Sequence record: OR204650.1
DNA: 39,650 nucleotides
Strand: one strand, 5' to 3'
Origin: Escherichia phage pO91
The number at the start of each line of letters is the position of its first letter. Position 1 is the first letter of the stretch. A program made the translations under genes and the position numbers. Under the pieces are notes generated by a model, which did not search any database, was not told the origin of the DNA, and saw only the letters and a program-made list of their open reading frames with translations. Of this stretch, positions 7,186-38,802 are shown piece after piece.

Positions 7186-7513
7186 GCACAAGAAGTGGTG
7201 CCACTCTGACCTTAGCTTCGCTTCGTACGACCGCAGTGCTATTAACAGCATCATCGCCGCGTGTAGTAAAGATGACGGGGTTCGCAAGCCATCTCACTAT
7301 CAGGTCTTTGATGGCGTGGAATCCATTGAGATTATCGCACGGTCAATGACTGTGAGTGAGTTTCGTGGGTTCTGCATGGGGAACGTCCTGAAGTATCGAC
7401 TCCGGGCTGGCAAGAAGTCAGAGCTAGCTACTATGGAGAAGGACCTAAACAAAGCAGCCTTCTATCAGGAGCTGTTCGACCTACATAAAGGTAAGTGCTA
7501 TGCTACCAAGTGA
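7178..7513 (+). CDS. Gene 1.7-like protein (C-terminal domain of T7 nucleotide kinase gp1.7 only)
   Basis: KPSHYQVFDGVESIEIIARSMTVSEFRGFCMGNVLKYRLRAGKKSEL...FYQELF...KCYA aligns with the C-terminal ~75 aa of recalled T7 gp1.7; 111 aa versus 196 in T7. Confidence 0.75.
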   Translation: MTKHKKWCHSDLSFASYDRSAINSIIAACSKDDGVRKPSHYQVFDGVESIEIIARSMTVSEFRGFCMGNVLKYRLRAGKKSELATMEKDLNKAAFYQELFDLHKGKCYATK

Positions 7514-7595
7514 GTGGGCTGAGAGAAAATTTGAGGAGACAGGTAACGTCGATTACCTTCAGCTCTACAACTTATGGAAGGAGCGCGGTTTATGA
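7500..7595 (+). CDS. Possible small ORF (31 aa)
   Basis: ATG overlaps the end of the preceding gene and the stop overlaps the gene 2 start; no other support. Confidence 0.25.
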
Positions 7596-7750
7596 CTGAG
7601 GTTGAGAAGAAATACATCGTGGAGCTTGAGGGTCGCGTTCAGTCCTTCGAGGTTCCGGTGTACGCAAAGTCTCTTGAAGAGGCTACCCTGAAGTCCCAAG
7701 AGTATGAGGACGCTGGGTTTGTGGTCGGACGGATTCGTCCTGAGACCTAA
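7592..7750 (+). CDS. Gene 2 homolog (inhibitor of host RNA polymerase)
   Basis: 52 aa; [15 protein letters not shown]...[10 protein letters not shown] matches recalled T7 gp2 (HSFEVPIYAETLDEA...AGFEVTRVRP). Confidence 0.8.
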
Positions 7751-7768
7751 ACTATCACTGTAGGACAG
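7746..7768 (+). promoter_or_regulatory. Phage RNAP promoter (phi2.5-like, variant -3 G)
   Basis: CCTAAACTATCACTGTAGGACAG overlapping the gene 2 stop. Confidence 0.6.
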
Positions 7769-7808
7769 ACGTCCAGTTCGTAACTTTTAAATTAGGAGAT
7801 TTACACCA

Positions 7809-8507
7809 ATGGCTAAAGAGCAACTGAAGACCTTCACCACTCCGGTAGCTGGTATCGTTGAGCCTTACGCATGGCTGAACAAAGCAGACACCAAGTTTAA
7901 CGAGCGTGGTGAACACAAAGTCAACCTGACATTCGACCTGAGCAACCCGAAGGTCCGTAAGATGATTGATGTCTTACAGAAGATTCACGACGATGCGTAT
8001 GCGAAAGCGCTCGCAGACCACGAGAAGAACCCTCCTCAGGTTCAGCGTGGCAAGAAGCCTATTGAACCACGAGAAGGCGACATGCCGTGGATTGAGAATG
8101 GTGACGGTACTGTTACCCTGAAGTTTAAATGCTTCGCGTCTTACCTGAAGGATGGTAAGTCCGAGCCTATCGTATTACGGTTCTACGACACCGATGCTAA
8201 GTTAATCCGTGACGTCCCGAATATTGGTGCTGGCTCAAAGCTGAAGGTCAAGTTTAAAGTCCTGCCGTTCAAGTGGAACGCTGCGACTGGTGCAAGCGTT
8301 AAGCTCCAGCTTGAGTCCTGCCTTCTGGTAGAACTGAAGGAGTGGAAAGGTGATGGTGCTGGTGGAGATGGTGGCTGGGGTGATGATGAAGACCTCGGTA
8401 CTGGCTACAAAGCGTCAACCGATGGTGACTTCGGGTCTGATGACTTCGGTGACGATGGTTCCGAAGGTGGTGATGACTCTAACTCTGGTGGCGATTACGA
8501 CTTCTAA
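7809..8507 (+). CDS. Single-stranded DNA-binding protein (T7 gene 2.5 homolog)
   Basis: Collinear with recalled T7 gp2.5 (EPYA, RGKKP, GDMPW, NGDGT, KFKC, GSKLKVK, KWNA, GASVKLQLES); acidic tail ending DF. Confidence 0.95.
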   Translation: MAKEQLKTFTTPVAGIVEPYAWLNKADTKFNERGEHKVNLTFDLSNPKVRKMIDVLQKIHDDAYAKALADHEKNPPQVQRGKKPIEPREGDMPWIENGDGTVTLKFKCFASYLKDGKSEPIVLRFYDTDAKLIRDVPNIGAGSKLKVKFKVLPFKWNAATGASVKLQLESCLLVELKEWKGDGAGGDGGWGDDEDLGTGYKASTDGDFGSDDFGDDGSEGGDDSNSGGDYDF

Positions 8508-8957
8508 ATGACGCTGAAAGAGAAACTGGAGGCTTACTCTAAGGTTTCTCCTTCGGGATGCTGGGAGTGGCAACGCTCCCGGACTAAAACTGGTTATGGT
8601 CAAATAGCTATAGGTCATCAGAAACAGGACTATTCTCACCGAGTTTCGTACAGGGAGTACAAAGGTCCTATACCTGATGGATTGGTTGTTAGACATAAAT
8701 GTGATAACCCTTGCTGCTGTAACCCTGAGCACCTTGAAGTTGGGACTCAGAAGGACAACATGCAGGACTGCGTGAAGCGGGGACGTCACTCGAAACCGCC
8801 AGTATTCAAAGGAGAAGCTAATCACAAGACTAAGCTGACCGAGGAAGACGTAGCGTTTATCCTGAAGTCCAAGCTGAGGCCTATAGAACTTGCTAAGATG
8901 TTTGGTGTTACTCCGCAAGCTATTAATTGGAGACGCAAGAATGGCAAGAACGATTAG
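8508..8957 (+). CDS. HNH homing-endonuclease-like protein (paralog A1)
   Basis: GPIPDGLVVRHKCDNPCCCNPEHLEVGTQKDN, a Cys/His-rich HNH core; free-standing between the SSB and endonuclease I genes. Confidence 0.85.
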   Translation: MTLKEKLEAYSKVSPSGCWEWQRSRTKTGYGQIAIGHQKQDYSHRVSYREYKGPIPDGLVVRHKCDNPCCCNPEHLEVGTQKDNMQDCVKRGRHSKPPVFKGEANHKTKLTEEDVAFILKSKLRPIELAKMFGVTPQAINWRRKNGKND

Positions 8958-9390
8958 CCGAGGGCATCAAGTAGGAATATATAGGTCTGGGCTAGAAGCA
9001 AAGAACCAAGAGTGGCTGGAGAAGAACGGAGTTAAGGCTGAGTACGAGATGTATAGCATCAAGTACACAATACCAGAATCTCTTCACAGTTATTGTCCAG
9101 ACTTTGTACTGCCCAACGGAATCATTGTGGAGACCAAAGGAATCTTCGCAGTGGAAGACCGAAAGAAGCACCTATTGATTAGAGAACAGCACCCAGAGTT
9201 AGACATCAGGTTCGTGTTCTCGAGTTCCCGCTCCAAGTTATACAAAGGGTCTCCGACCACGTATGGCTCATGGTGCGAAAAGAACGGCTATAAGTATGCC
9301 GATAAGTTCATCCCGGTTGAGTGGCTGCGAGAGGCGACTGTACGTCTGCCTTCAGGTATACTCATTCCAAAGAAGAAAGGAGTTAAGTGA
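8941..9390 (+). CDS. Endonuclease I, Holliday-junction resolvase (T7 gene 3 homolog)
   Basis: 149 aa as in T7; YRSGLE, PDFVLPNGIIVETKG, DRKKHLLIREQHPELDIRFVFSSSRSKLYKGSPT match recalled T7 gp3; start at M18 of the track ORF. Confidence 0.93.
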   Translation: MARTISRGHQVGIYRSGLEAKNQEWLEKNGVKAEYEMYSIKYTIPESLHSYCPDFVLPNGIIVETKGIFAVEDRKKHLLIREQHPELDIRFVFSSSRSKLYKGSPTTYGSWCEKNGYKYADKFIPVEWLREATVRLPSGILIPKKKGVK

Positions 9391-9614
9391 TGACTCAAGA
9401 AGTTAAGGTCATTCGTCAGCGTCTGACCATTGATAAAATCCCTGTGGGATATGCGTTTATCGTCCACGGTAAGCCTGGTGAAGTGTACGTGAAGATTAGT
9501 AACTCTCACGTCTTCAACCATAAGTTGCTCCAGATGCACACAACGGATGCTAACCGCTTCCAACGTCATCTGAACCTCGTAGCTGTAGAGCTGGTGGTGT
9601 ACGATGGTGAGTAA
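9390..9614 (+). CDS. Hypothetical protein (74 aa) between endonuclease I and the amidase gene
   Basis: AAGGAG RBS, ATG at 9390; no counterpart at this position in T7. Confidence 0.55.
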   Translation: MTQEVKVIRQRLTIDKIPVGYAFIVHGKPGEVYVKISNSHVFNHKLLQMHTTDANRFQRHLNLVAVELVVYDGE

Positions 9615-10062
9615 GGTTCAGTTCAACCCACGGTCCCGTACTGACGCTATCTTCGTTCACTGTTCGGCTACCAAGCCAGATATGGACATCGGGGTAGAGA
9701 CCATCCGTATGTGGCATAAGCAGCAAGGCTGGCTGGACGTAGGCTACCACTTTATCATCAAGCGTGATGGCACTGTGGAAGAGGGTCGCCAGGTCAATGT
9801 AGTAGGGTCACACGTTAAGGACTGGAACTCACGGTCTGTAGGCGTCTGCCTTGTAGGTGGAATTGACGCTAAGGGCAAGTTTGAAGCTAACTTCACTCCG
9901 GCCCAGATGAACTCCCTGCGCAACAAGCTGGCTGACCTGAAGGCACTGTATCCTCAGGCAGAAATCAAAGCACACCATGACGTAGCACCTAAGGCGTGTC
10001 CAAGTTTCGACCTGCAACGCTGGCTGTCTACCAATGAACTGATCACTTCCGACCACGGTTAA
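9604..10062 (+). CDS. N-acetylmuramoyl-L-alanine amidase / T7 lysozyme homolog (gene 3.5)
   Basis: TDAIFVHCSATKP, WLDVGYHFIIKRDGTVEEGR, GVCLVGG, FTPAQM, HHDVAPKACPSFDL collinear with recalled T7 gp3.5. Confidence 0.95.
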   Translation: MVSKVQFNPRSRTDAIFVHCSATKPDMDIGVETIRMWHKQQGWLDVGYHFIIKRDGTVEEGRQVNVVGSHVKDWNSRSVGVCLVGGIDAKGKFEANFTPAQMNSLRNKLADLKALYPQAEIKAHHDVAPKACPSFDLQRWLSTNELITSDHG

Positions 10063-10086
10063 TAAACCATAAAGGAGAACAACTCA

Positions 10087-10302
10087 ATGATTAAACTTAT
10101 CGAATTTCTCGGTCGTCTGGTGGTGCGTGGCTATCGTCATGCTGCGGTTCTGGAACGAAAAGTAGAAAAGAAGACTGCTGATGGTGCGGCCGAGGCTGCT
10201 GCTATGGCTGACAAGCTGACCATAGCGTCACTGGAAGCTGGCATGAAGGCACGTCAAGCTGATACCAAAGCTGACCAGTTGGCTCAGTTCTTCAAAGACT
10301 AA
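10087..10302 (+). CDS. Hypothetical protein (71 aa)
   Basis: ORF track; GGAGAA RBS; Ala/Lys-rich; sits where T7 carries gene 3.8, but has no HNH motif. Confidence 0.55.
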   Translation: MIKLIEFLGRLVVRGYRHAAVLERKVEKKTADGAAEAAAMADKLTIASLEAGMKARQADTKADQLAQFFKD

Positions 10303-10320
10303 ACTATCACCTTAGGGATT
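10298..10320 (+). promoter_or_regulatory. Degenerate phage promoter-like site
   Basis: ACTAAACTATCACCTTAGGGATT; upstream half matches the consensus, -4 and -3 are substituted (CT for TA). Confidence 0.35.
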
Positions 10321-10366
10321 GGACCATGAGTCCTGTCCCTTTGTTCGCATTTGTGATTATTAAATA

Positions 10367-10445
10367 GCCTCCATAGCTCAAGAGGTAGAGCGGCGGGTCT
10401 TTATGGCCTATTGCGATTAGGGTTCGAATCCCCGTGGAGGCGCCA
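10367..10445 (+). tRNA. tRNA-like element (possible tRNA gene or pseudogene; anticodon arm not resolved)
   Basis: 7-bp acceptor stem GCCTCCA/TGGAGGC plus G-CCA tail; D-arm TAGCTCAAGAGGTAGAGC; T-arm TAGGG-TTCGAAT-CCCCG; the 25-nt middle section does not give a canonical anticodon stem. Confidence 0.45.
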
Positions 10446-10456
10446 CTAAGGAGTGA

Positions 10457-12160
<1,704 letters not shown>

Positions 12161-12211
12161 ATGTCAATGCCCTGAGTGCGACTGGAAGTCACCATACGGA
12201 GGACACCATTA

Positions 12212-12376
12212 GTGTTTAAGAAACTTAAAGCTCGCTACCATCGGTTCATGTACAAATGGTGGAGCGATGAGGCAACCTGCCTGTCAAACATTCTAGGAGA
12301 ACAGAGGTTCGACTCTAAGGCATGGAAGAAAGCTAACCGGAAGTTTATGTATCACTTCTTGCGTACAGACTTCTAG
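12212..12376 (+). CDS. Hypothetical small protein (54 aa, gene 4.x position)
   Basis: In frame with track ORF 12176..12376; GGAGGA RBS 8 nt before GTG at 12212; start uncertain. Confidence 0.4.
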   Translation: MFKKLKARYHRFMYKWWSDEATCLSNILGEQRFDSKAWKKANRKFMYHFLRTDF

Positions 12377-12378
12377 GT

Positions 12379-12423
12379 CTAGACTCAAGGTCATTCATAT
12401 AGAGTGGCCTTTATGATTAGACT
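12379..12423 (+). promoter_or_regulatory. Conserved hairpin element, copy 2 (putative RNase III site, R4.7-like position)
   Basis: TAGACTCAAGGTCA...TGGCCTTTATGATTAGAC; stem AAGGTCA/TGGCCTT at 12387-12393 and 12405-12411. Confidence 0.5.
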
Positions 12424-12439
12424 AAACGGAGGATTAACC

Positions 12440-14611
12440 ATGTTTGACCTTAAGGATATTTGGGGTTCGGACATCGAGACAAACGGTCTCCTTGACACCG
12501 TGTCCCAGTTCCATTGTGGGGTCCTGATTAATGCCGAGTCGAATGAGACCCTTAAGTATGGGGTAGCGCCGATGGTCGGTATCGTCGGTGGCTTCAAAGA
12601 GTATGTTAATAAAGTGGAAGAGATTGCCGCAACACCTACAGGTATGCTGGTATTCCACAACGGTATCAACTATGACGTCCCGGCTATTGACAAGCTGAAA
12701 CGTCTGTACTTTGGGAAACGCTTTAACTTCCCGAAACACAAGATGATTGATACCTTGGTGTTGGGACGCTTGATGTATCCCAACATTAAGTTCTCAGACA
12801 TGGGCGCAGTGAAAGCTGGTCGTCTACCGCCTAAGATGATGGGACGCCAGTCTCTTGAGGCTTGGGGTTATCGTCTCGGTGAGATGAAGGGTGAGTACAA
12901 ACACGATTACGTTGCCAAGTGCAAGGCAGAAGGTATCGAATATAAGGCTGGGGATGAATGGTTGTTCCCGTCTCAGGAGATGCTGGACTATAACGTTCAA
13001 GACGTTGTGGTCACACTGGCGTTGTTCAAGAAGTTCCTGACTGACAAGTATTACTTCCAGTCTGAACAGTTCGCTTTCGACCAGATTTATGCGTTGCGTC
13101 TGGAACATGATGCTGCGTGGACCTGTGCGAAGATGGAACGTAACGGCTATCCAATGAACACCGAGATGGTCGAAGGCTTGTATCGTGAACTTACAGTCAA
13201 ACGTGCAGAGCTGCTGGACAAGCTGCGTTCGACTTTCGGTAGCTGGTACGCACCAAAGGGAGGCAAGGAGTTCTTCAGGCATCCACGGACAGGTAAGGAC
13301 CTTCCGAAGTATCCGCGAGTCGTGTATCCTAAGGTCGGTGGCATCTTTAAGAAGCCGAAGAACAAAGCTCAACGCTTAGGTCTTGAACCTTGTGATCGCG
13401 ATACGCGAGACACGATGGAAGGAGCGCCTTTCACGCCAATCACTTACGTTGAGTTTAATCCGGGAAGCGGAGACCACTTGGCGAAAGTCTTGATGGAGCG
13501 TGGCTGGGAGCCTGTGGACTTCACTGACACCGGGAAACCTGTAGTCGATGACGAGACGTTAGAACACGTTAAGTTACCAGACGCAGAGGCTCAGGCTTGC
13601 GTAGAGCTGGTCCGTGAGTATCTGGTAGTCCAGAAGCGCATTGGTCAGGCGGCTGAGGGTAAGAACGCATGGTTGAAACTTGTAGGTCCAGACGGACGTA
13701 TGCATGGTTCAATCAACCCCTGCGGGGCAGTAACCGGACGTGCGACTCATAGCTCACCAAACATGGCTCAGGTCCCGGCTAACGGTGCTCCGTATGGTGA
13801 GACTTGCCGTGGTGCTTTCGGTGCAGCATGGAACAAGAAGGACGGTAAGCCAGACCCTTGGATTCAAGTTGGTGTGGATGCCTCAGGTCTTGAGCTTCGT
13901 TGTCTTGGGAACCGAGCGGCTCCGTTTGATGGTGGTGCATATGCGAAGACTGTGGTCGAAGGTGACATCCACTGGGCAAACGCAGTCAACGCTGGGTTAG
14001 CACCTAACGTCCCACGCGATAAGTCTAACCACGACCATGAGGCTTTCCGTAACAACGCTAAGACGTTCATCTATGCGTTCCTGTATGGTGCAGGGGCCGC
14101 TAAGATTGGACTGATAGTAGGAGGTGGTAAGAAGGAGGGTTCAGCTCTCATGAAGAAATTCATTGAGGGTACACCAGCCATCAAGGACCTCAGGGAAGCT
14201 GTGAGTAATACGTTAATCTCAGACTCGAAGTGGGTGGACGGTGAGAATATCGTCAAGTGGAAACGCCGTTGGCTGCGTGGACTTGATGGTCGCCGCATTC
14301 ACATCCGGTCGCCACACTCAGCACTGAACGCCTTACTTCAAGGCGATGGTGCGGTAGTCTGTAAAACGTGGTTCACTTGGCTTGAGAGGAACCTAGAAGC
14401 TAAAGGCTACGTGCATGGCTGGGATGGTGACTTTGCGATTATGGCTTTTGTCCATGATGAAGTTCAGGTTGCCGCAAGGACTATGGAAATAGCTGAGGAC
14501 ATCGTTCGGGTGGCGCAGGCCACAATGCGAGAGGTTGGAGAGTTCTATAACTTTAAATGTGTCCTTGATACAGAAGGTAAGATTGGACCTACGTGGCGCG
14601 AATGTCACTAA
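12440..14611 (+). CDS. DNA polymerase (T7 gene 5 homolog)
   Basis: DIETNGLL exonuclease motif, FHNG..YDVPA, Pol A motifs; collinear with recalled T7 gp5; GGAGG RBS before ATG at 12440. Confidence 0.96.
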   Translation: MFDLKDIWGSDIETNGLLDTVSQFHCGVLINAESNETLKYGVAPMVGIVGGFKEYVNKVEEIAATPTGMLVFHNGINYDVPAIDKLKRLYFGKRFNFPKHKMIDTLVLGRLMYPNIKFSDMGAVKAGRLPPKMMGRQSLEAWGYRLGEMKGEYKHDYVAKCKAEGIEYKAGDEWLFPSQEMLDYNVQDVVVTLALFKKFLTDKYYFQSEQFAFDQIYALRLEHDAAWTCAKMERNGYPMNTEMVEGLYRELTVKRAELLDKLRSTFGSWYAPKGGKEFFRHPRTGKDLPKYPRVVYPKVGGIFKKPKNKAQRLGLEPCDRDTRDTMEGAPFTPITYVEFNPGSGDHLAKVLMERGWEPVDFTDTGKPVVDDETLEHVKLPDAEAQACVELVREYLVVQKRIGQAAEGKNAWLKLVGPDGRMHGSINPCGAVTGRATHSSPNMAQVPANGAPYGETCRGAFGAAWNKKDGKPDPWIQVGVDASGLELRCLGNRAAPFDGGAYAKTVVEGDIHWANAVNAGLAPNVPRDKSNHDHEAFRNNAKTFIYAFLYGAGAAKIGLIVGGGKKEGSALMKKFIEGTPAIKDLREAVSNTLISDSKWVDGENIVKWKRRWLRGLDGRRIHIRSPHSALNALLQGDGAVVCKTWFTWLERNLEAKGYVHGWDGDFAIMAFVHDEVQVAARTMEIAEDIVRVAQATMREVGEFYNFKCVLDTEGKIGPTWRECH

Positions 14612-14620
14612 GGAGATAAG

Positions 14621-14947
14621 ATGGGAGGTGTAGCAACCTTACGCTTCCATAAGATGCCTACTGGATGTATCGTCTGTGTATCTCACAAGAGGAACCAAGA
14701 TGGATACTTTCGGTACACGGTAGGCTCTGCCCGTAAGCCGGGACGCAAGGCGTTTATGTTCCACCGATGGGTGTGGGAACAGAAGCGCGGACCTATACCA
14801 GATGGCTACGAGATAGACCATTTGTGCTTGAACCGTGGGTGCTGCAACATAGAGCACCTACAGTGTATTCCAAAGCGCGAACACGTCATTAAGACGAACC
14901 GTGAGCGCAAACTTATTAAGAAGGAGAAGACTAATGGCTATTACTAA
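14621..14947 (+). CDS. HNH homing-endonuclease-like protein (gene 5.3 position)
   Basis: RGPIPDGYEIDHLCLNRGCCNIEHLQ HNH core; immediately after the DNA polymerase gene. Confidence 0.8.
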   Translation: MGGVATLRFHKMPTGCIVCVSHKRNQDGYFRYTVGSARKPGRKAFMFHRWVWEQKRGPIPDGYEIDHLCLNRGCCNIEHLQCIPKREHVIKTNRERKLIKKEKTNGYY

Positions 14948-15218
14948 ACGTATTCGTGTGAGTTTTGACCTGAAGATGGTTGTCAGTTCAGAGGAAGAAG
15001 AGACCATGTGTCGCAACCTGGCTGAGTTGACTAAAGCCTACTCTCAGGGTGTGAAGCTGGATGGATTTCAGGTGGCTATGGTCAAAGCAGCAATCGAGTC
15101 AGGCCCTGAGTCTGCCATTGAAATTGTCGCCAAGAAGTTCATCAAGAAGGAGCTGGTAGACGCCTTTGGTGAGGGTCAGTTCGGTGTGTCCAACCTGCGA
15201 TTCGAGGTCAAGCAATGA
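14934..15218 (+). CDS. Gene 5.5 homolog (T7 gp5.5, H-NS-binding protein)
   Basis: MAITKRIRVSFDL...KLDGF aligns with recalled T7 gp5.5 (MAMTKRFKVTFDV...KLDGW); AAGGAG RBS; internal ATG of the track ORF. Confidence 0.8.
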   Translation: MAITKRIRVSFDLKMVVSSEEEETMCRNLAELTKAYSQGVKLDGFQVAMVKAAIESGPESAIEIVAKKFIKKELVDAFGEGQFGVSNLRFEVKQ

Positions 15219-15424
15219 GTGAATACTTACGGGTCCTAGCGGCCCTTAAGTCCTGCCCGAAGACATTTCAGTCCAACTATGTGCGCAACAACGCTGCACT
15301 TGTGGCTGAGGCTGCGAGTCGTGGACATCTAAGCTGCCTGTCTATGGATGGGCGTAACAACGGTGCGTGGGAGATTACCGCTGCTGGCACCAAGTTCCTG
15401 AATCAACACGGAGGCTGCCTGTAA
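15215..15424 (+). CDS. Gene 5.7 homolog
   Basis: MSEYLRVLAALKSCPKTFQSNYVRNNAALVAEAASRGH..C...GRNNGAWEITA.GT almost identical in pattern to recalled T7 gp5.7; 69 aa. Confidence 0.9.
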   Translation: MSEYLRVLAALKSCPKTFQSNYVRNNAALVAEAASRGHLSCLSMDGRNNGAWEITAAGTKFLNQHGGCL

Positions 15425-15807
15425 TGACCGAGTGTACCCGTTGGACTGGCTACTTCCTATCTAATGGGTATGGTCAGATAAAGAAAGCTGGAGTAAAGTG
15501 GCTGGCACATCGTCTGGTTTATACCGAGAACTTCGGTCCAATACCTGATGGTCTGGTGGTCAGGCATAAATGTGACAACCGCTGGTGCGTTAACCCTGAG
15601 CACTTAGAGCTTGGGACTCAGCGTGATAATATAAACGACTGCGTTGCCCGTGGTCGCCATAACAATGCAAAGCTGTCAGACCAGCAGGTTCGTGAAATCC
15701 GCAAGGATAAGCGCAGCTCTCGTGCTGTAGCGGCTGACTATGGGATTGACCATAAAGGCGTACTGGCGGTGCGGAACCGTAAATCTTATCAACATGTGGA
15801 GGACTGA
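15424..15807 (+). CDS. HNH homing-endonuclease-like protein (paralog A2)
   Basis: GPIPDGLVVRHKCDNRWCVNPEHLELGTQRDN; shares an identical 15-aa block with the 8508 protein; ATG overlaps the 5.7 stop. Confidence 0.85.
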   Translation: MTECTRWTGYFLSNGYGQIKKAGVKWLAHRLVYTENFGPIPDGLVVRHKCDNRWCVNPEHLELGTQRDNINDCVARGRHNNAKLSDQQVREIRKDKRSSRAVAADYGIDHKGVLAVRNRKSYQHVED

Positions 15808-16674
15808 ATGTCTGAAAAGAAAATAGCTCTTGTGTTAGATGGTGACTATCTGGTGTTCTCTTCTATGGCTGCTGCCGAGGACGAGACTGACTGGGGTGAT
15901 GATATTTATACCCTTATCTGCGACCACGCCAAGGCTCGTCGTATCCTTGAGAACACCATCGCTGAAATCGTTAAGAAGCGCAAGGCGTGGAAAGACGCTA
16001 AGATTGTGATGTGCTTTACTGACGATAACAACTGGCGTAAGGACGTTCTGCCTACCTATAAGGCCAACCGTAAAGGTTCTCGCAAGCCTGTAGGTTACAA
16101 GAAGTTCGTAGCCGAAGTGATGGCTGACCCACGGTTCAACAGCTTCCTGCGTCCTACGCTTGAGGGTGATGACTGTATGGGTATCATCGGTACCAGACCT
16201 CAGATTGTCGGATGTGACCATGCGGTTCTGGTGTCCTGTGACAAGGACTTCAAGACCATCCCGAACTGTGAGTTCTTCTGGTTAACCACTGGTGAAATCC
16301 TGAGTCATACGACTGCCGAGGCAGACTACTGGCACATGGAGCAGACCATCAAGGGTGACACTACAGATGGCTACGGTGGTATTCCGGGGATGGGTGAGGA
16401 CACCACTCGTGTGTTCCTTGACGAGCCGTACTACTTCGTGCAGGAGAGCCGAGAGCTTAAGACTGGTAAGAACAAAGGCCAGATTAAGACTGAGTGGAAG
16501 AAGTATCCGAAGCGTGAAGACATGACGTTGTGGGACTGCATGGTGACTCTGGCTGCTAAGGCTGGCATGACCGAGGAGGAACTTCTGGTCCAAGCTCAGG
16601 TCGCTCGTATTTGTCGAGCATCTGACTATGACCCTAAGTCCAAGGAGGTCATCCTATGGACACCATCCATGTAA
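15808..16674 (+). CDS. 5'-3' exonuclease (T7 gene 6 homolog)
   Basis: DGD.LVF, CDHAKAR, FTD..NWRK, YKANRK, KPVGY, LEGDD.MG, SCDKDFKTIPNC, TIKGD.TDGY, GKNKGQ, LWDC, AKAGMTEE collinear with recalled T7 gp6. Confidence 0.95.
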   Translation: MSEKKIALVLDGDYLVFSSMAAAEDETDWGDDIYTLICDHAKARRILENTIAEIVKKRKAWKDAKIVMCFTDDNNWRKDVLPTYKANRKGSRKPVGYKKFVAEVMADPRFNSFLRPTLEGDDCMGIIGTRPQIVGCDHAVLVSCDKDFKTIPNCEFFWLTTGEILSHTTAEADYWHMEQTIKGDTTDGYGGIPGMGEDTTRVFLDEPYYFVQESRELKTGKNKGQIKTEWKKYPKREDMTLWDCMVTLAAKAGMTEEELLVQAQVARICRASDYDPKSKEVILWTPSM

Positions 16675-16680
16675 TATACT

Positions 16681-16701
16681 GGGCCGGACTTCTGGCCCTT
16701 T
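16681..16701 (+). terminator. Weak hairpin after the exonuclease gene (possible attenuator)
   Basis: GGGCC-GGACTTCT-GGCCC followed by only TTT; short stem and poor U-tract. Confidence 0.2.
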
Positions 16702-16800
16702 ACTGCATGTACAAGTGGTTCGGGTCGAACAACCGACCTAAACACTGAGTCTAACCGATAGTCATATCCTATCAATCCAACAGTCATCCATAGGTGAAAC

Positions 16801-16823
16801 ACTAAACTATCACTATAGGGACT
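16801..16823 (+). promoter_or_regulatory. Phage RNAP promoter (phi6.5-like)
   Basis: ACTAAACTATCACTATAGGGACT; perfect -17 to +4 consensus. Confidence 0.8.
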
Positions 16824-16884
16824 TTAGGACCTAAGATATGACTATAAGATAGACTTTAGTCTCAACTTAAAGAGGAGATTCAAG

Positions 16885-21980: not shown

Positions 21981-22547
21981 ATGGCTCAATACATTCCACT
22001 GAATACTAACGATGACTTAGACGCCATCAACGATATGTTAGCTGCTATCGGTGAACCAGCAGTCCTACAGCTTGACGAAGGAAACGCTGATGTCTCGAAC
22101 GCACAACGTATCCTGCATCGTGTCAATCGTCAGGTCCAAGCTAAAGGCTGGAACTTTAATATCAACGAAGCTGCTGTCCTGACACCTGATGTCCAAGACA
22201 ATAGGATTCGATTCTTGCCGTCATACCTTCGTGTAATGACATCTGGGGCCACCAGCTACTACAGCAACATGGGTGGATACCTGTACGACCTGTCCACTCA
22301 GTCAACCACTTTCACCGACCCTATCACGGTAGAGCTTGTGGAGATGAAGCCATTCTCCGAGATGCCTGTGGTCTTCAGGGACTACATCGTCACTAAAGCT
22401 AGCCGTGAGTTCAACGCTAAGTTCTTCGGTAGCCCAGAGTCAGAGCTATACCTTCGTGAGCAGGAAGCAGAACTCTATCAGCAGGTTATGGAGTACGAGA
22501 TGGACACTGGTCGCTACAACATGATGTCTGACATCGGGAGGGACTAA
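21981..22547 (+). CDS. Tail tubular protein A (T7 gene 11 homolog)
   Basis: GEP.V, RIL.R.NRQ.Q..GW.FNI, GGY.YD, EMP..FR..IVTKASR.FN..FFG.PE, MEYEMD.G.YNM match recalled T7 gp11. Confidence 0.93.
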   Translation: MAQYIPLNTNDDLDAINDMLAAIGEPAVLQLDEGNADVSNAQRILHRVNRQVQAKGWNFNINEAAVLTPDVQDNRIRFLPSYLRVMTSGATSYYSNMGGYLYDLSTQSTTFTDPITVELVEMKPFSEMPVVFRDYIVTKASREFNAKFFGSPESELYLREQEAELYQQVMEYEMDTGRYNMMSDIGRD

Positions 22548-22774
22548 TGGCTAGTCACAACCTGAAGATTCACCGCCGGCACTTTGGTCCGGTACAGCTA
22601 GGTATAAAGACAGCAGAGCTGAGACTTAACGACCGGGACTTTAAGGTTGGCGATTGGCTTATCCTGAATGAGTGGGACAACGGGTATACTGGACAACAGG
22701 TAGCGCGTAAGGTTATCCACATTGCTGACGTTGGTGACATCGCTGAAGGATACGTCCTAATGAGTATGATTTAA
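22547..22774 (+). CDS. DUF3850/ASCH-like (PUA-fold) small protein inserted between the gp11 and gp12 genes
   Basis: HNLKIHRRHFGPVQLGIKTAELRLNDRDFKVGDWLILNEWDNGYTGQQ...GYVLMS fits my recollection of the DUF3850 pattern; ATG overlaps the gp11 stop; T7 has no gene here. Confidence 0.6.
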   Translation: MASHNLKIHRRHFGPVQLGIKTAELRLNDRDFKVGDWLILNEWDNGYTGQQVARKVIHIADVGDIAEGYVLMSMI

Positions 22775-25217: not shown

Positions 25218-25682
25218 ATGTATATTCGCAAGGCTACGGAACCAGATGTCCACTACTTTCTGTGGCATCTTTCAGCAGATGATGTTAATGAATGCAAAGC
25301 AAACTACGGGTCAACCGTGGGTCTCTCTGAGAGACTGCTTAAGCACCTATCTCCATCATCTGTGGTCTTAACTAACGGTGTAGGCGAAGTGTTTGCCTAT
25401 GGTGGAAACCAAGGGGATAACGTATGGTTCTTGACTTCGGGTCTTGTCCACAAGCTGAGACCTAAAGAGAAGCGAGAGTTCATAAAGCGTATCTCTGAGT
25501 ACAGGGACTTAATGTTAGACCAATACGGGACCATCTGGAACTACGTGTGGTCAGGCAATAAGTCTCACATTAAATTCTTGAAGTTGCTTGGTGCTAGGTT
25601 TCACGAGGAGTGGACTGTAAGCCCAGTAACTGGTGAGCGTTTTCAACTATTCACTATCTCTAAGGAGGATGGATGTGACTAA
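25218..25682 (+). CDS. Internal virion protein at the gene 13 position
   Basis: ORF track; AAGGAGA RBS; assignment by synteny only. Confidence 0.6.
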   Translation: MYIRKATEPDVHYFLWHLSADDVNECKANYGSTVGLSERLLKHLSPSSVVLTNGVGEVFAYGGNQGDNVWFLTSGLVHKLRPKEKREFIKRISEYRDLMLDQYGTIWNYVWSGNKSHIKFLKLLGARFHEEWTVSPVTGERFQLFTISKEDGCD

Positions 25683-26061
25683 GGTTTGTACCGTCTGTAA
25701 AATTGAAAAGCCGCTCGAGGCATTCTCTCCTCGGAAAGACTCTAAGTGTGGTGTGCGCTCGGCCTGTAAGCTGTGTCATAATGGCAGGAGTCACAAGAAC
25801 AAGGGATACGAGAAGTATCACATTACGCAGATAGAATATGATTCCATCCTAAAAGAGCAGGGTGGTGTCTGCGCAATCTGCAAGACATCAGGAACTAGCC
25901 GAGGATTATGCATTGACCATTGTCACATCTCCTGGAAAGTCCGAGGCATCCTTTGTCATACCTGCAACCTAAAGCTGACCCGTAGAAACTATCCTTCTAC
26001 ATGCGAAGATTTCGATGGTAAGGCTGCTGAGTACCTGGCTATAAGCCAGAAGGGGGATTAG
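25675..26061 (+). CDS. Endonuclease VII-family (HNH-type) nuclease
   Basis: GGVCAICK...RGLCIDHCH...RGILCHTCN matches the T4 endonuclease VII zinc/His-Cys pattern; start uncertain (GTG 25675 after AAGGAGG; the track ORF starts at 25633). Confidence 0.7.
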   Translation: MTKVCTVCKIEKPLEAFSPRKDSKCGVRSACKLCHNGRSHKNKGYEKYHITQIEYDSILKEQGGVCAICKTSGTSRGLCIDHCHISWKVRGILCHTCNLKLTRRNYPSTCEDFDGKAAEYLAISQKGD

Positions 26062-35697: not shown

Positions 35698-36135
35698 ATG
35701 CTCGAATTTTTAAAGAGAGCGGCTCCGTGGTTACTTGCAGCAGTGATGTTTGCTGGTGGCTACCACACCGCTAACAATAAGTGGGAGGCTAAGGTCAATG
35801 CAGAATACACCTCGAATCTTAAGGCATCGGAAGATACAAGGCTTGCTGTCCAAGCTGAAGTCAACAAAGTGTCCAGACGGTTTCAGGACGAAATGTCCTC
35901 GCTGGAAGGCAGCACTGATAGGATTATTGCTGACCTTCAGTCTGACAATAAGCGGTTGCGCGTCAAAGTCAACACCTCAGGTCTCACCGAGTCCGATATC
36001 AGTCGATGCTTCCCTAATGGTAGAGTCGAATTACACGAGTCAACTTCTAGAAGTCTTATCGAAATAACCCAGAAGGCAGACTTAAAGGAGAAGGCTTTAC
36101 AGGATACCATAAGGAGGTTGCAGGGTGCTAAGTGA
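35698..36135 (+). CDS. Rz-like i-spanin (T7 gene 18.5 homolog)
   Basis: MLEFLKRAAPWLLA, LEGSTDRIIADLQSDNKRLRVKV, LQDTIRRLQ match recalled T7 gp18.5. Confidence 0.92.
   Translation: MLEFLKRAAPWLLAAVMFAGGYHTANNKWEAKVNAEYTSNLKASEDTRLAVQAEVNKVSRRFQDEMSSLEGSTDRIIADLQSDNKRLRVKVNTSGLTESDISRCFPNGRVELHESTSRSLIEITQKADLKEKALQDTIRRLQGAK
35798..36067 (+). CDS. Rz1-like o-spanin lipoprotein embedded in the +1 frame of Rz (T7 gene 18.7 homolog)
   Basis: PRWKAALIGLLLTFSLTISGCAS lipobox and SVDASLMVE match recalled T7 Rz1; GGAGG 9 nt before ATG 35798; wholly inside the Rz gene. Confidence 0.85.
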   Translation: MQNTPRILRHRKIQGLLSKLKSTKCPDGFRTKCPRWKAALIGLLLTFSLTISGCASKSTPQVSPSPISVDASLMVESNYTSQLLEVLSK

Positions 36136-36511
36136 TTTAGTATATGAAGACGGGAAGCTGCTTAAAGGTGGGAAGGAGGTGGGTCACATCTCTAACCACG
36201 GCTACAGGCGCTTCAAGATAAACGGAAAGAACTATTTGGTCCACCGCTTGATTTACAAGATGCACAATCCTGAGTTCGACATTCTATCTGAACTGGTTGT
36301 GGACCACATCAACCGCAACCGTCTGGACAACATGATTGAGAACCTAAGGGCTGTGACCACGGCGGAGAATAACAGGAACCACGCTCCACCACTAGGTGTA
36401 TCATTCTGTAAACAGACTGGTAAATGGAAGGCGATTCATCCCCGGTGGCTTGGACGTTTTGATACAAAAGAGGAGGCCCTTAATGCAGTCAACGCCGCAA
36501 GACAGGAATAA
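36125..36511 (+). CDS. HNH_3-type homing endonuclease with AP2-like DNA-binding domain (paralog B1)
   Basis: [30 protein letters not shown] core followed by [28 protein letters not shown]; between Rz and large terminase; start uncertain (GTG 36125 or GTG 36178 after GGAAGGAGG). Confidence 0.8.
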
Positions 36512-38259: not shown

Positions 38260-38802
38260 ATGGCGAAGGTGAAGGACATCGACAGGGTGTCCCTCTTCGA
38301 CCACTATGCGTATGTTGATGGACAACTGGTGTGCAGGAAGCCTTTCGGCAGCTCGAAGAAGACCCCGGGCGAACCTATGGGCTTCTCTGTACACCCTTCC
38401 GGATACGCCATAGTGAAGGTGCTTGGAGGTAGGTATAGACGCTCTCGAATCATATACAGTCTAGCTGTAGGTCGAATACCTAAGGGTATGATGGTCGACC
38501 ACATCAATGGTGATAGGCTGGACGATAGACCTGAGAACTACAGGCTTGTTACTGCGCTTGAGAACCGCTGGAACTCAGAGGGTGGAGAGACTAATGGTCT
38601 CCCTAAGGGTATCAGCTTCTTCAAGCCAACAGGTAAATATCGTGCTCAGCTTCGGGTTCATGGTAAGTGTTTCACTAAGACTTCGGATTCCATAGAGGAA
38701 CTAGAGGCATGGCTGGCTGCTCTACGAACAGAGAAGCACAAGGAATACGCAGTAAACCGACGGTCCCCTACGCGAGATAGGACATACAGAAACCGTAAGT
38801 AG
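38260..38802 (+). CDS. HNH_3-type homing endonuclease with AP2-like domain (paralog B2)
   Basis: MVDHINGDRLDDRPENYRLVTALEN plus GISFFKPTGKYRAQLRVHGK; directly after the large terminase gene; AAGGAGG RBS. Confidence 0.85.
   Translation: MAKVKDIDRVSLFDHYAYVDGQLVCRKPFGSSKKTPGEPMGFSVHPSGYAIVKVLGGRYRRSRIIYSLAVGRIPKGMMVDHINGDRLDDRPENYRLVTALENRWNSEGGETNGLPKGISFFKPTGKYRAQLRVHGKCFTKTSDSIEELEAWLAALRTEKHKEYAVNRRSPTRDRTYRNRK

Follow-up and report, generated by a model that had tools for sequence, protein, structure and literature searches.

The product of gene 5.3 of phage T3 has reportedly been shown by experiment (by Bonocora and Shub, in Current Biology in 2009) to be a free-standing homing endonuclease that drives its own spread, and it is said to cut the DNA polymerase gene at the intron-insertion site. 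This product is named F-TslI, and its kin system is the intron-encoded I-TslI of T7-like phages. T7 gp2.8 and gp7.7 are putative HNH homing endonucleases, neither of which is known to have a mapped target. PMC10448857 summarises the T3 case and cites the Bonocora and Shub work for T3, and PMC3428280 names I-TslI of phage W31. Homing endonuclease genes (HEGs) that are free-standing have also been described for T4-like phages (mobE, seg), as have nuclease genes at the recombination boundaries of ICP1 and other phages (PMC2790892, PMC2988022, PMC10448857).

The window analysed here is the whole stretch of 39,650 nucleotides from Escherichia phage pO91 (OR204650.1), a Kayfunavirus (K1F-like, T7 family). 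A first-pass annotation had placed three HNH endonuclease ORFs among its replication genes, in what it considered a typical homing-endonuclease arrangement. All three are present on the + strand as intact Pfam HNH_3 nucleases, here designated HNH-1, HNH-2 and HNH-3, and the arrangement is borne out by empty sites, by insertion at gene junctions and by links to T3 gp5.3 and T7 2.8. We conclude that these genes are probably free-standing HEGs, that is, selfish site-specific nuclease cassettes at gene junctions of the class II (DNA metabolism) region. They belong to well-known HEG types, and the finding is an ordinary one.

Layout and family of the three genes

The features of the region are as follows.

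7746..7768, + strand: phage RNA polymerase promoter, phi2.5-type, heading the unit gp2.5, HNH-1 and gene 3
7809..8507, + strand: gene 2.5 (ssDNA-binding protein; ORF), left flank of site 1
8508..8957, + strand: HNH-1, free-standing HNH_3 nuclease gene (Pfam HNH_3), T7 gene 2.8 position
8941-9390, + strand: gene 3 (endonuclease I), with a diverged allele in its 5' part, 8941..9130
10298..10320, + strand: phage promoter, phi4-type (consensus scan)
12404..14611, + strand: gene 5 (DNA polymerase), one uninterrupted ORF of 732-735 aa, left flank of site 2
14358..14611, + strand: 3' end of the polymerase gene, HEG-linked diverged allele including motif C (identity comparison)
14621..14947, + strand: HNH-2, free-standing HNH_3 nuclease gene (Pfam HNH_3), gene 5.3 position
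14934-15218, + strand: gp5.5-like gene (ORF; homologues annotated in PE3-1, K1F and CR44b)
15215-15424, + strand: gp5.7 gene (ORF; homologues annotated in the same three phages)
15424..15807, + strand: HNH-3, free-standing HNH_3 nuclease gene (Pfam HNH_3), 5.7|6 junction
15808..16674, + strand: gene 6 (5'-3' exonuclease; ORF), right flank of site 3

HNH-1 (149 aa), at the gp2.5|endonuclease I junction, has its start directly behind the gp2.5 stop and shares 17 nt with gene 3 (ATG 8941). HNH-2 (108 aa), at the DNA polymerase|gp5.5 junction, starts 10 nt past the polymerase stop (14611) and has 14 nt in common with the gp5.5-like gene (ATG 14934), while HNH-3 (127 aa), at the gp5.7|exonuclease junction, shares 1 nt of its ATG with the gp5.7 stop and ends 1 nt before gene 6 (ATG 15808). 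The window was scanned with a 23-nt promoter consensus derived from the promoters annotated in CR44b. The promoter at 7746..7768 has four mismatches to this consensus; that at 10298..10320 heads the unit gene 4, gene 5, HNH-2, 5.5, 5.7, HNH-3 and gene 6, the next one downstream being at 16801-16823. The scan found no promoter directly 5' of any HNH gene, so their transcription would start at the promoters of 7746 and 10298, which they share with neighbouring genes. HNH-2 has its own ribosome-binding site, taaggagataagATG, and that of gene 6 (gtggaggactgaATG) is provided by the 3' end of HNH-3. The 3' end of every cassette supplies a replacement ribosome-binding site for the essential gene downstream, and insertion should therefore be non-polar.

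Each protein matches Pfam HNH_3 (PF13392, cut-off 24.8 bits) over nearly the full profile, with E values of 6.6e-16 (HNH-1), 1.3e-19 (HNH-2) and 6.3e-17 (HNH-3), and PHROGs families labelled 'endonuclease' or 'HNH endonuclease' (E 1e-29 to 1e-35). In an alignment of 60 sequences, H48, C50, C55, H60, G64, N69 and D72 were invariant, and all are kept in HNH-3 and HNH-1. Each of the three is predicted to be an intact His-Me-finger (HNH_3) nuclease that keeps the His, Cys, Asn and Asp residues invariant in the family. In an AlphaFold2 model of HNH-3 (pLDDT 87.4), residues 45-48 and 61-64 form strands and residues 66-75 a helix, with three more helices towards the C terminus. When it was compared with the PDB by Foldseek, the only match with E <= 0.001 was I-HmuI (1u3e), spanning all 127 residues (E 7e-4, probability 1.00); the next ones, I-PpoI and Smad MH1, both His-Me fingers, were weak (E 0.06-0.2). 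A search by sequence only found no detectably related PDB entry. The predicted layout of HNH-3 is I-HmuI-like, a beta-beta-alpha-metal nuclease at the N terminus and, after it, a three-helix DNA-binding module at the C terminus, and that of HNH-1 is, from homology, probably the same. Two subtypes are represented: the two-domain T7 gp2.8/7.7-like type (HNH-1 and HNH-3), and the short T3 gp5.3 type (HNH-2), which is without a separate DNA-binding domain, a point that counts against the homing reading.

Empty sites and diverged neighbouring alleles

The comparison with relatives that had been proposed to define insertion sites was carried out on about 220 related phage records, the queries being each gene plus 400-nt flanks, and a gene being counted as the same at a coverage of at least 80%. 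By this measure HNH-1 was found in 7/222 records, HNH-2 in 17/220 and HNH-3 in 4/225. Many listed relatives match the flanks only, over a span shorter by 431, 323 and 387 bp at sites 1, 2 and 3; among the 60 matches listed per site, such empty matches numbered about 48 at site 1 and about 29 at site 3. Precise empty sites exist at all three sites, and they are exact to the base: the upstream stop and the downstream start overlap as TAATG, ATGA or GTGA. HNH-1 is absent, leaving a precise empty site, from K1F, IME177, KE05, CR44b, Monomax, YZ1, ST31 and Vec13; site 3 is empty in PE3-1, K1F and CR44b and, according to its annotation, in ST31. Other relatives have a different occupant at the same junction. 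Those at site 3 include non-nuclease genes (a 149-aa phrog_4382 ORF; gp5.9 in T7 and T3), so that presence or absence there is weaker evidence of homing.

Against a genome-wide background of 91-94% identity to relatives, the diverged alleles of the essential genes beside HNH-1 and HNH-2 drop to 65-77%. At site 1, gene 2.5 is 88-99% identical to its relatives as far as its stop codon. The first 200 nt or so of gene 3 (8941..9130) are 65-71% identical to every compared genome with an empty site 1, and 98-100% identical to PE3-1, which also has HNH-1; from about position 9200, identity is back to 94-98%. This part of gene 3 is near-invariant in the eight empty-site genomes, and exists as three different alleles in the five occupied ones. 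It is a candidate region for the target-site equivalent.

At site 2, the last 250 nt or so of the polymerase gene are 65-83% identical to genomes without an intact HNH-2, and mostly 97-99% identical to the HNH-2 carriers TM1 and IME177 (83-85% in the last 100 nt). In K1F, an intron of 598 nt with an HNH gene inside it interrupts the polymerase gene; the equivalent of its insertion point falls, in the window, between 14455 and 14456 (His|Asp of VHDE). The window's protein has AIMAFVHDEVQVAA here, where the seven genomes that lack a 5.3-type gene all have AYMAWVHDELQIAC; the CR44b variant ends ...QIAA.

The association is confined to each site and holds in both directions: PE3-1 has HNH-1 and the gene 3 allele in common with the window, yet has the 'empty' polymerase allele; IME177 and TM1 agree with the window in HNH-2 and in the polymerase allele, IME177 having the 'empty' gene 3 allele. 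Across 13 Kayfunavirus genomes, and taking no account of shared ancestry, a non-standard gene 3 allele was found in 5/5 site-1 carriers and 0/8 empties, and the counts at site 2 were 6/6 carriers and 0/7 non-carriers. Ordinary mosaic recombination blocks could explain part of this association. Tight linkage of HNH-1 and HNH-2 to diverged neighbouring alleles is the expected product of target immunity or co-conversion.

The proposed history of such a cassette would be as follows. In a co-infection with a HEG-less relative, the enzyme would cut or nick the HEG-less genome near the empty site: the likely target would be, for HNH-1, either gene 3 at its 5' end or the 2.5/3 junction; for HNH-2, polymerase motif C, where K1F and related phages have a group I intron, in line with what is reported of T3 gp5.3; and for HNH-3, the conserved 5.7/6 junction. 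The break would be resected and repaired by the phage recombination machinery with the HEG-carrying genome as template, and the HEG would be copied into the recipient together with some flanking sequence. The carrier would be immune at sites 1 and 2 through the diverged allele of the neighbouring gene, and at site 3 through the splitting of the presumed target by the insertion itself. No diverged flank was seen for HNH-3 in the comparison with relatives, and its proposed target and immunity mechanism are the least supported of the three.

Nuclease load, selection and other readings

Three further nuclease genes lie downstream, as had been claimed, though one of them is of the Endonuclease VII type (PF02945) and not HNH_3.

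25669..26061, + strand: downstream nuclease 4, Endonuclease VII-type (PF02945, E 1.1e-14), between gp13 and gp14
36125..36511, + strand: downstream nuclease 5, HNH_3 plus AP2-like, GTG start, between the spanin and terminase genes
38260..38802, + strand: downstream nuclease 6, HNH_3 (Pfam, E 3.7e-15), after the large terminase gene

Nuclease 4 was found in 9/221 related records, and nuclease 6, which is 85% identical to PE3-1 gp20, in 12/222; for nuclease 5, no related record covers at least 80% of the query. An 83-aa ATG ORF for nuclease 5 was replaced by the start at GTG 36125, which has an AAGGAGG ribosome-binding site 5' of it and gives a 128-aa reading covering HNH_3 positions 1-46 of 46 (E 5e-15). 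The load of HNH plus EndoVII-type genes, called high in the first-pass annotation, is fairly so described at six but is not extreme: CR44b has five, KM02 four intact and two decayed, and the other 12 genomes one to three, including T7 (three, besides the PD-(D/E)XK gene 5.3) and T3 (one). Six is the top of the known range (1-6 in 15 genomes), and no anomaly.

The ratio dN/dS is 0.20 for HNH-1 against TM1, 0.04-0.11 for HNH-2 and 0.04 for HNH-3 (the value of 0.54 for the near-identical HNH-1/PE3-1 pair rests on too few differences to be informative), which points to purifying selection at 0.04-0.2 on all three. Such low values, and six nuclease genes in one genome, would also fit genes kept mainly for a benefit to the phage, such as binding or masking DNA ends from break-sensing defences (GAPS4) or harming co-infecting competitors. 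T7 without genes 2.8, 3.8 and 7.7 loses to the wild type on GAPS4 hosts, and catalytically dead gp3.8 still blocks GAPS4 (bioRxiv 10.1101/2025.09.07.674715); HNH-1 is a positional homologue of gp2.8 (42% identity, same junction), and HNH-1 and HNH-3 are both related to gp7.7. Those data, however, concern gp3.8 alone and one triple deletion, not gp2.8- or gp7.7-type proteins singly (same preprint). Each HNH gene is moreover lacking in over 90% of the related records, where a generally useful function predicts otherwise, and the diverged tracts with their sharp limits next to HNH-1 and HNH-2 are predicted by homing but unexplained by an anti-defence role. We therefore hold benefit to be a doubtful main cause of retention; it could be an extra role beside homing and not an alternative to it.

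It appears improbable that the genes are ordinary accessory genes or inactive relics, moved by general homologous recombination of mosaic blocks with their own nuclease irrelevant. T7-like genomes are indeed mosaic, the gp5.5 region beside HNH-2 also occurs as unrelated alleles, non-nuclease genes hold site 3 in many relatives, and the 5.3-type homologue of HNH-2 in KM02 is decayed. But all catalytic and zinc-binding residues are intact, at the low dN/dS given above, and HNH-2, which is 96-98% identical to its IME177 and TM1 counterparts and 45% to the K1F intron-encoded HNH, is still 85% identical over 101 aa to its orthologue T3 gp5.3, in spite of saturated synonymous sites (pS 0.74). HNH-3 is 99% identical to its counterpart in Monomax and 97% to that in KE05, and homologues 71-76% identical hold the same place between gp5.7 and gp6 in contigs of other genera, where identity to the window is just 55% for gp6 and 31-35% for gp5.5, so that divergence is greater in the flanking genes than in the HEG.

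The motif GPIPDG....H.C.N..C.N.EHL was found in HNH-1, HNH-2 and HNH-3, and the 15-residue block GPIPDGLVVRHKCDN is identical in HNH-1 and HNH-3, both as first annotated. BLASTP similarity among the three is far above chance (HNH-1/HNH-3 44% identity, E 1e-32; HNH-1/HNH-2 32%, E 2e-11; HNH-2/HNH-3 41%, E 3e-13), and the term 'paralogous' applied to them holds at the family level, but not in the sense of in-genome duplicates; there are two subtypes, and mutual identity is only 32-44%. In spite of this shared family, motif and block, recent duplication within this genome, perhaps with gene conversion, is highly improbable: each gene has a counterpart 97-99% identical at the same site in other phages (98.7% for HNH-1 and PE3-1 ORF 9755-10204; the 'HNH homing endonuclease' of TM1 is 80% identical to HNH-1), CR44b gp7.7 and gp7.7C are as close to HNH-1 and HNH-3 as these two are to each other, and the block differs at 7 of its 45 bases (38 identical) in genes 64% identical overall at the DNA level. 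The block is a conserved catalytic core and not the trace of a recent duplication or gene conversion.

Comparison with described systems

Like the window's genes, the free-standing HEGs of T4-like phages and the nuclease genes of ICP1 and other phages are intergenic nuclease cassettes beside essential conserved genes, polymorphic among relatives and with flanking sequence co-converted or diverged. They belong to another phage family and to other nuclease subfamilies, and for those of T4 both homing and marker exclusion have been proved directly by genetics. I-HmuI of Bacillus phage SPO1 (PDB 1u3e) resembles HNH-3 in having an N-terminal HNH nuclease and then a helical DNA-binding module, but its gene lies within a group I intron, the protein is longer at 174 aa, and identity is only 24%; the high rmsd to the HNH-3 model (9 A) we take as a different relative domain orientation.

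Among T7 proteins, gp2.8 is encoded, like HNH-1, between gene 2.5 and gene 3, and gp7.7 is 38-42% identical to HNH-1 and HNH-3. All four are HNH_3 proteins with matches to a zinc-binding loop model, although at an identity of only about 40% their specificity may differ. At the 5.7|6 junction, T7 and T3 have gene 5.9 (RecBCD inhibitor) where the window has HNH-3.

In T3, a Teetrevirus and not a Kayfunavirus, gp5.3 is of the same Pfam family as HNH-2 and is likewise encoded directly after the DNA polymerase stop codon. The polymerase allele that accompanies HNH-2 is divergent right around the motif C position at which the intron is inserted; the linked allele reads AIMAFVHDE in the window and AYMAWIHDE in T3.

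Nuclease genes of phage pO91

All long ORFs of the window lie on the plus strand and follow the classical gene order of T7: RNA polymerase, ligase, gp2.5, endonuclease I, amidase, primase/helicase, DNA polymerase, exonuclease, structural genes and terminase. A megablast search with 7800-16700 matched 491 phage records, the best of which were Kayfunavirus (K1F-like) genomes, at 92 to 94% identity and 84 to 92% coverage in three to seven pieces. No fetched genome covered more than 89% of the window. Judged from these matches, pO91 is a distinct Kayfunavirus; where it aligns with its kin, the gaps are mostly at the nuclease genes. The first-pass annotation had reported three HNH genes in the replication region, each overlapping a neighbour, and three further nucleases downstream. 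All six were recovered, the first three as intact ORFs with a Pfam HNH_3 domain:

8508-8957, plus strand: HNH-1, 149 aa, overlapping gene 3 by 17 nt
14621-14947, plus strand: HNH-2, 108 aa, overlapping gene 5.5 by 14 nt
15424-15807, plus strand: HNH-3, 127 aa, overlapping gene 5.7 by 1 nt
25669-26061, plus strand: Endonuclease VII-type gene, between gp13 and gp14
36125-36511, plus strand: HNH_3/AP2-like gene, starting at GTG 36125
38260-38802, plus strand: HNH_3 gene

Scores against PF13392 (HNH_3, His-Me finger nucleases) were 58.1, 70.0 and 61.4 bits for HNH-1, HNH-2 and HNH-3 (cut-off 24.8; E-values 6.6e-16, 1.3e-19 and 6.3e-17), and each ORF covered positions 2 to 44-46 of the 46 in the HNH_3 profile; NCBIfam had no model for any of the three. 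In a 60-sequence alignment of homologues, H48, C50, C55, H60, G64, N69 and D72 (HNH-3 numbering) were invariant. Their counterparts are present in HNH-1 (H63, C65, C70, H75, G79, N84 and D87) and HNH-2 has the H.C.N..C.N.EHL core, so that the core is common to all three, as had been claimed. The catalytic His, the metal-binding Asn/His and the zinc-binding Cys residues of the family are intact. A search of 5.8 billion proteins yielded 281 HNH-3 homologues at E <= 1e-10; the HNH_3 domain was found in 120 of the 120 listed, several of which had extra helix-turn-helix domains.

An AlphaFold2 model, computed for HNH-3 only (pLDDT 87.4), has strands at 45-48 and 61-64, a helix at 66-75 and three C-terminal helices; HNH-3 is thus predicted to have the beta-beta-alpha-metal fold. 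The sole PDB match to this model at E <= 0.001 was I-HmuI, an HNH homing endonuclease; the His-Me fingers of I-PpoI and Smad MH1 came next, with weak E-values. A PDB sequence search with HNH-1 and HNH-2 gave nothing meaningful, I-HmuI being found only by the fold search with the HNH-3 model. Pfam scans of the C-terminal tails alone were nearly blank (a sub-threshold helix-turn-helix, HTH_24, E 0.08, for HNH-1; none for HNH-3), so a putative C-terminal DNA-binding module rests on the structure model and on the helix-turn-helix domains of homologues.

The three genes had been described as paralogous. Their pairwise similarity is indeed highly significant (44%, 32% and 41% identity; E 1e-32 to 2e-11) and the 15-residue block noticed in HNH-1 and HNH-3 is the same in both, but in-genome duplication or gene conversion is an unlikely source: 38 of the 45 bases of the block are the same and the whole genes are 64% identical at the DNA level, which argues for constraint on the catalytic core, not recent copying. 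The three genes appear to be maintained as working proteins. Against homologues, dN/dS was 0.04 to 0.20 for all three; the HNH-1/PE3-1 pair gave 0.54, a value that is uninformative because the two sequences are nearly identical. The GC content of the HNH genes (0.47 to 0.50, against 0.498 for the genome) is unremarkable, and composition is therefore silent on a foreign origin.

Two of the downstream genes deserve comment. The gene at 36125-36511 overlaps the end of the spanin gene and starts behind an AAGGAGG ribosome-binding site; its 128-aa product has a complete HNH_3 domain and an AP2-like tail, and an 83-aa reading from ATG 36260 would miss the domain's first third. At >=80% coverage, this region matched no related phage record. 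The Endonuclease VII-type gene was present in only 9 of the 221 related records; a 60-aa remnant is left at this position in KM02. It has been argued that EndoVII-motif proteins, in podoviruses with a T7 endonuclease I of their own, are probably homing endonucleases (PMC6083498).

HNH and EndoVII-type ORFs were then counted across genomes by iterative profile search.

Nuclease genes per genome
pO91 (window): 6
CR44b: 5
KM02: 4 intact and 2 decayed
PE3-1, TM1, UFJF_EcSW4, T7: 3 each
Monomax, KE05: 2 each
K1F, IME177, YZ1, ST31, Vec13, T3: 1 each

The high load noticed at first stands as a count of six, the highest among the genomes counted, yet pO91 is not set apart: it lies within a continuum that runs down to one. 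Each of the six genes was present in at most 8% of related records. A varying content of homing endonucleases has already been noted for T7-like phages (PMC4925675).

Insertion sites and cassette layout

Each HNH gene, extended by 400 nt on either side, was used to search 50,697 phage records, and a record was taken to have the same gene at >=80% coverage. Relatives with 'empty' sites, that is, without the insert, were found at each of the three junctions.

Records matching the three HNH junctions
Site 1 (HNH-1), gp2.5 / gene 3: 222 matching records, 7 with the same gene; empty span 431 bp shorter
Site 2 (HNH-2), gene 5 / gp5.5: 220 matching records, 17 with the same gene; empty span 323 bp shorter
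Site 3 (HNH-3), gp5.7 / gene 6: 225 matching records, 4 with the same gene; empty span 387 bp shorter

The other records among the matches listed had both flanks over a shorter span, or had the junction filled by another sequence of about equal length. Counterparts 97 to 99% identical were found in PE3-1 for HNH-1, in TM1 and IME177 for HNH-2, and in Monomax and KE05 for HNH-3; none of the fetched genomes had all three. For PE3-1, the database annotation gives only a 66-aa 'putative HNH endonuclease' (10007-10204), and is truncated, since the full 149-aa ORF, 98.7% identical to HNH-1, is intact at 9755-10204. The same genome has a 204-aa HNH_3 ORF at 7330-7944, overlapping the annotated ligase and gp1.4 genes.

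Junction alignments of the fetched genomes placed the HNH genes exactly between the upstream stop and downstream start codons, not inside an intron or intein. At empty sites these codons overlap: as TAATG for gp2.5 and gene 3 and again for the polymerase gene and gp5.5, and as GTGA or ATGA for gp5.7 and gene 6. In the window the cassette takes the place of the overlap at all three sites, and its 3' end furnishes the Shine-Dalgarno sequence of the downstream gene (ggagacgcaagaATG, aaggagaagactaATG and gtggaggactgaATG). Phage promoters lie at 7746, 10298 and 16801, none of them directly 5' of an HNH gene. With no promoter of their own and a new Shine-Dalgarno sequence, the cassettes would ride on class II transcripts without polar effects.

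A tRNA-like element, unusual for a T7-like phage, lies between the promoter at 10298-10320 and the primase/helicase gene:

10367-10445, plus strand: tRNA-like element with an encoded 3' CCA

It scored 35.9 bits against Rfam tRNA (gathering score 29) and was called 'tRNA-Stop' by ARAGORN, its TTA anticodon being one that would read the stop codon UAA. Its minimum free energy fold pairs an acceptor stem and a D-arm-like hairpin, with a stability not above that of shuffled sequences (z -1.3). Of the 119 phage records that matched, 33 have the region, and one record annotates it as 'tRNA-OTHER'. The element could serve as a suppressor tRNA or as a signal for RNA processing.

Site 3 is held by other sequences in several phages: a 149-aa ORF (phrog_4382, no Pfam match) in IME177 (23308-23757), UFJF_EcSW4, KM02 and YZ1; an ORF of about 40 codons with two CxxC pairs in TM1 (16641-16766); and gene 5.9 in T7 and T3. 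The 5.7/6 junction is a general hot spot for accessory genes. On contigs of other T7-like phages, whose gp6 and gp5.5 are 55% and 31 to 35% identical to those of the window, genes for two proteins 76% and 71% identical to HNH-3 also lie between the gene for a 69-aa gp5.7 and that for the 5'-3' exonuclease. HNH-3 is therefore better conserved than its neighbours, at the same address across genera. Elsewhere, between tail genes 11 and 12, a small ASCH/DUF3850 gene (22547-22774, plus strand; 'RNA-binding protein' in relatives) is present in PE3-1, TM1 and CR44b and absent from K1F, and is thus another polymorphic accessory gene.

Diverged tracts beside HNH-1 and HNH-2

A 100-nt identity profile of the window against nine Kayfunavirus genomes revealed two sharp troughs on a background of 91 to 94%:

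8941-9130, plus strand: 5' part of gene 3, beside HNH-1
14358-14611, plus strand: 3' end of the polymerase gene, beside HNH-2

No trough was seen at the HNH-3 flanks in the same profile; the HNH-3 insertion interrupts conserved junction sequence.

Over its first ~200 nt, gene 3 shows 65 to 71% identity to all the genomes in which site 1 is empty, and 98 to 100% to PE3-1. Over this stretch the eight empty genomes are nearly invariant and the five occupied ones carry three different alleles, all converging again from about 9130-9200. The last ~250 nt of the polymerase gene are 65 to 83% identical to genomes without an intact HNH-2; against TM1 and IME177 identity is mostly 97 to 99%, and 83 to 85% over the last 100 nt. 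A patch at ~14545-14590 (TTCTATAACTTTAAATGTGTCCTTGATACAGAAGGTAAGATTGGACC), where the window agrees with genomes lacking the homing endonuclease gene (HEG) and not with TM1 or IME177, suggests a small secondary recombination or conversion event.

The altered stretch of the polymerase includes motif C. It reads AIMAFVHDEVQVAA in the window, TM1, IME177 and Monomax; ALMAWIHDE in UFJF_EcSW4 and KM02, both of which have a 5.3-type gene (decayed in KM02); and AYMAWVHDELQIAC (CR44b: ...QIAA) in seven of seven genomes without a free-standing 5.3-type gene. The polymerase gene of K1F contains a 598-nt intron (14937-15534) with an HNH gene at 15019-15414. Its insertion point exactly separates the His codon of VHDE from the Asp codon; it is equivalent to the point between 14455 and 14456 of the window, 165 nt 5' of the HNH-2 start, and the HNH-2-linked allele is altered around it. 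The uninterrupted ORF and the alignments indicate that the window polymerase gene has no intron; Rfam at gathering thresholds missed even the K1F intron, and is therefore unfit to exclude introns.

PE3-1 combines a window-type gene 3 allele with an 'empty' polymerase allele, and in IME177 the combination is the opposite one, so that the linkage between HEG and allele is local, not clade-wide. A non-standard allele was present in all five carriers and none of the eight empty genomes at site 1, and in all six carriers and none of the seven non-carriers at site 2 (Fisher's exact test, by hand and ignoring shared ancestry: ~8e-4 and ~6e-4). This pattern fits a nuclease that would target the adjoining conserved gene and travel with a resistant, co-converted allele.

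Proposed homing, rival explanations and known systems

We consider it likely, from the comparative sequence data, that the three genes are free-standing HEGs: the HEG-less allele would be cleaved by the encoded nuclease, then restored with the insert by recombinational repair. The homing interpretation first proposed is supported by the empty sites, the match of HNH-2 to T3 gp5.3 and the shared position of HNH-1 and T7 gene 2.8. We are most confident of this for HNH-2 and least for HNH-3.

An added beneficial role for the phage, beyond homing, is brought to mind by a preprint (bioRxiv 10.1101/2025.09.07.674715) in which T7 genes 2.8, 3.8 and 7.7 together raise fitness on GAPS4 hosts, nuclease-independently; the present data do not require such a role, which we hold to be rather doubtful. 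It is more doubtful still that the six-nuclease pile-up is not purely selfish, HNH-1 and HNH-3 types doubling as anti-defence factors that need no nuclease activity and hide DNA ends from break-sensing systems such as GAPS4, or as weapons against co-infecting Kayfunaviruses. If this were true, homing would also drive non-synonymous change beside the active sites of essential enzymes, namely Y-to-I and W-to-F next to the polymerase HDE motif and a recoded endonuclease I N-terminus. That the three are passive accessory genes is unlikely. A role as terminase accessory factors (HK97 gp74-type) was rejected as unlikely from the position of the genes in the replication module and their patchy distribution, most relatives being without them; genes of that type adjoin the terminase genes and are required for packaging in cos phages, and T7-like phages package their DNA using terminal repeats.

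If the three genes do act by homing, the predicted targets are the gene 2.5/3 junction, motif C of the polymerase, where the intron lies in related phages, and the 5.7/6 junction. Together with the three downstream genes they would be dispensable mobile cassettes marking points of sequence exchange among Kayfunaviruses. The practical value lies in annotation and phage engineering, and relatives with and without each gene form a natural set for work on homing or interference competition.

A close known counterpart is T3 gp5.3, to which HNH-2 is 85% identical over 101 aa. T3 gene 5.3 (15168-15473) directly follows gene 5, and HNH-2 begins 10 nt past the polymerase stop; by its high identity and its position, HNH-2 belongs to the T3 gp5.3 (F-TslI) orthologue group. 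It is 96 to 98% identical to the IME177 and TM1 genes; against the HNH gene carried by the polymerase intron of K1F, identity is 45%. T3 gene 5.3 is reportedly a free-standing homing endonuclease that spreads into the empty sites of related phages, its product being said to cut polymerase genes that lack the intron just where the intron-encoded I-TslI does. The T3 case has been summarised as collaborative homing in which the intron insertion sequence is cleaved (PMC10448857), and the name I-TslI is given to an HNH enzyme encoded in an intron of a T7-like phage (PMC3428280). The decayed 5.3-type copy in KM02 fits the usual cycle of invasion, decay and loss. In T7, the same site holds a gene 5.3 (16483-16839) that is not HNH: it matches PD-(D/E)XK family PF11645 (E 1e-10), so that unrelated nuclease families can hold the same junction in T7-like phages.

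HNH-1 lies at exactly the position of T7 gene 2.8, with 42% identity. HNH-1 and HNH-3 are also 38 to 46% identical to T7 gp7.7 and to CR44b gp7.7 and gp7.7C, which sit at other junctions. Near-identical genomes in the databases already label several of the genes described here as HNH (homing) endonucleases, and free-standing HNH homing endonuclease genes at such sites have long been established in T7, T3 and related phages.
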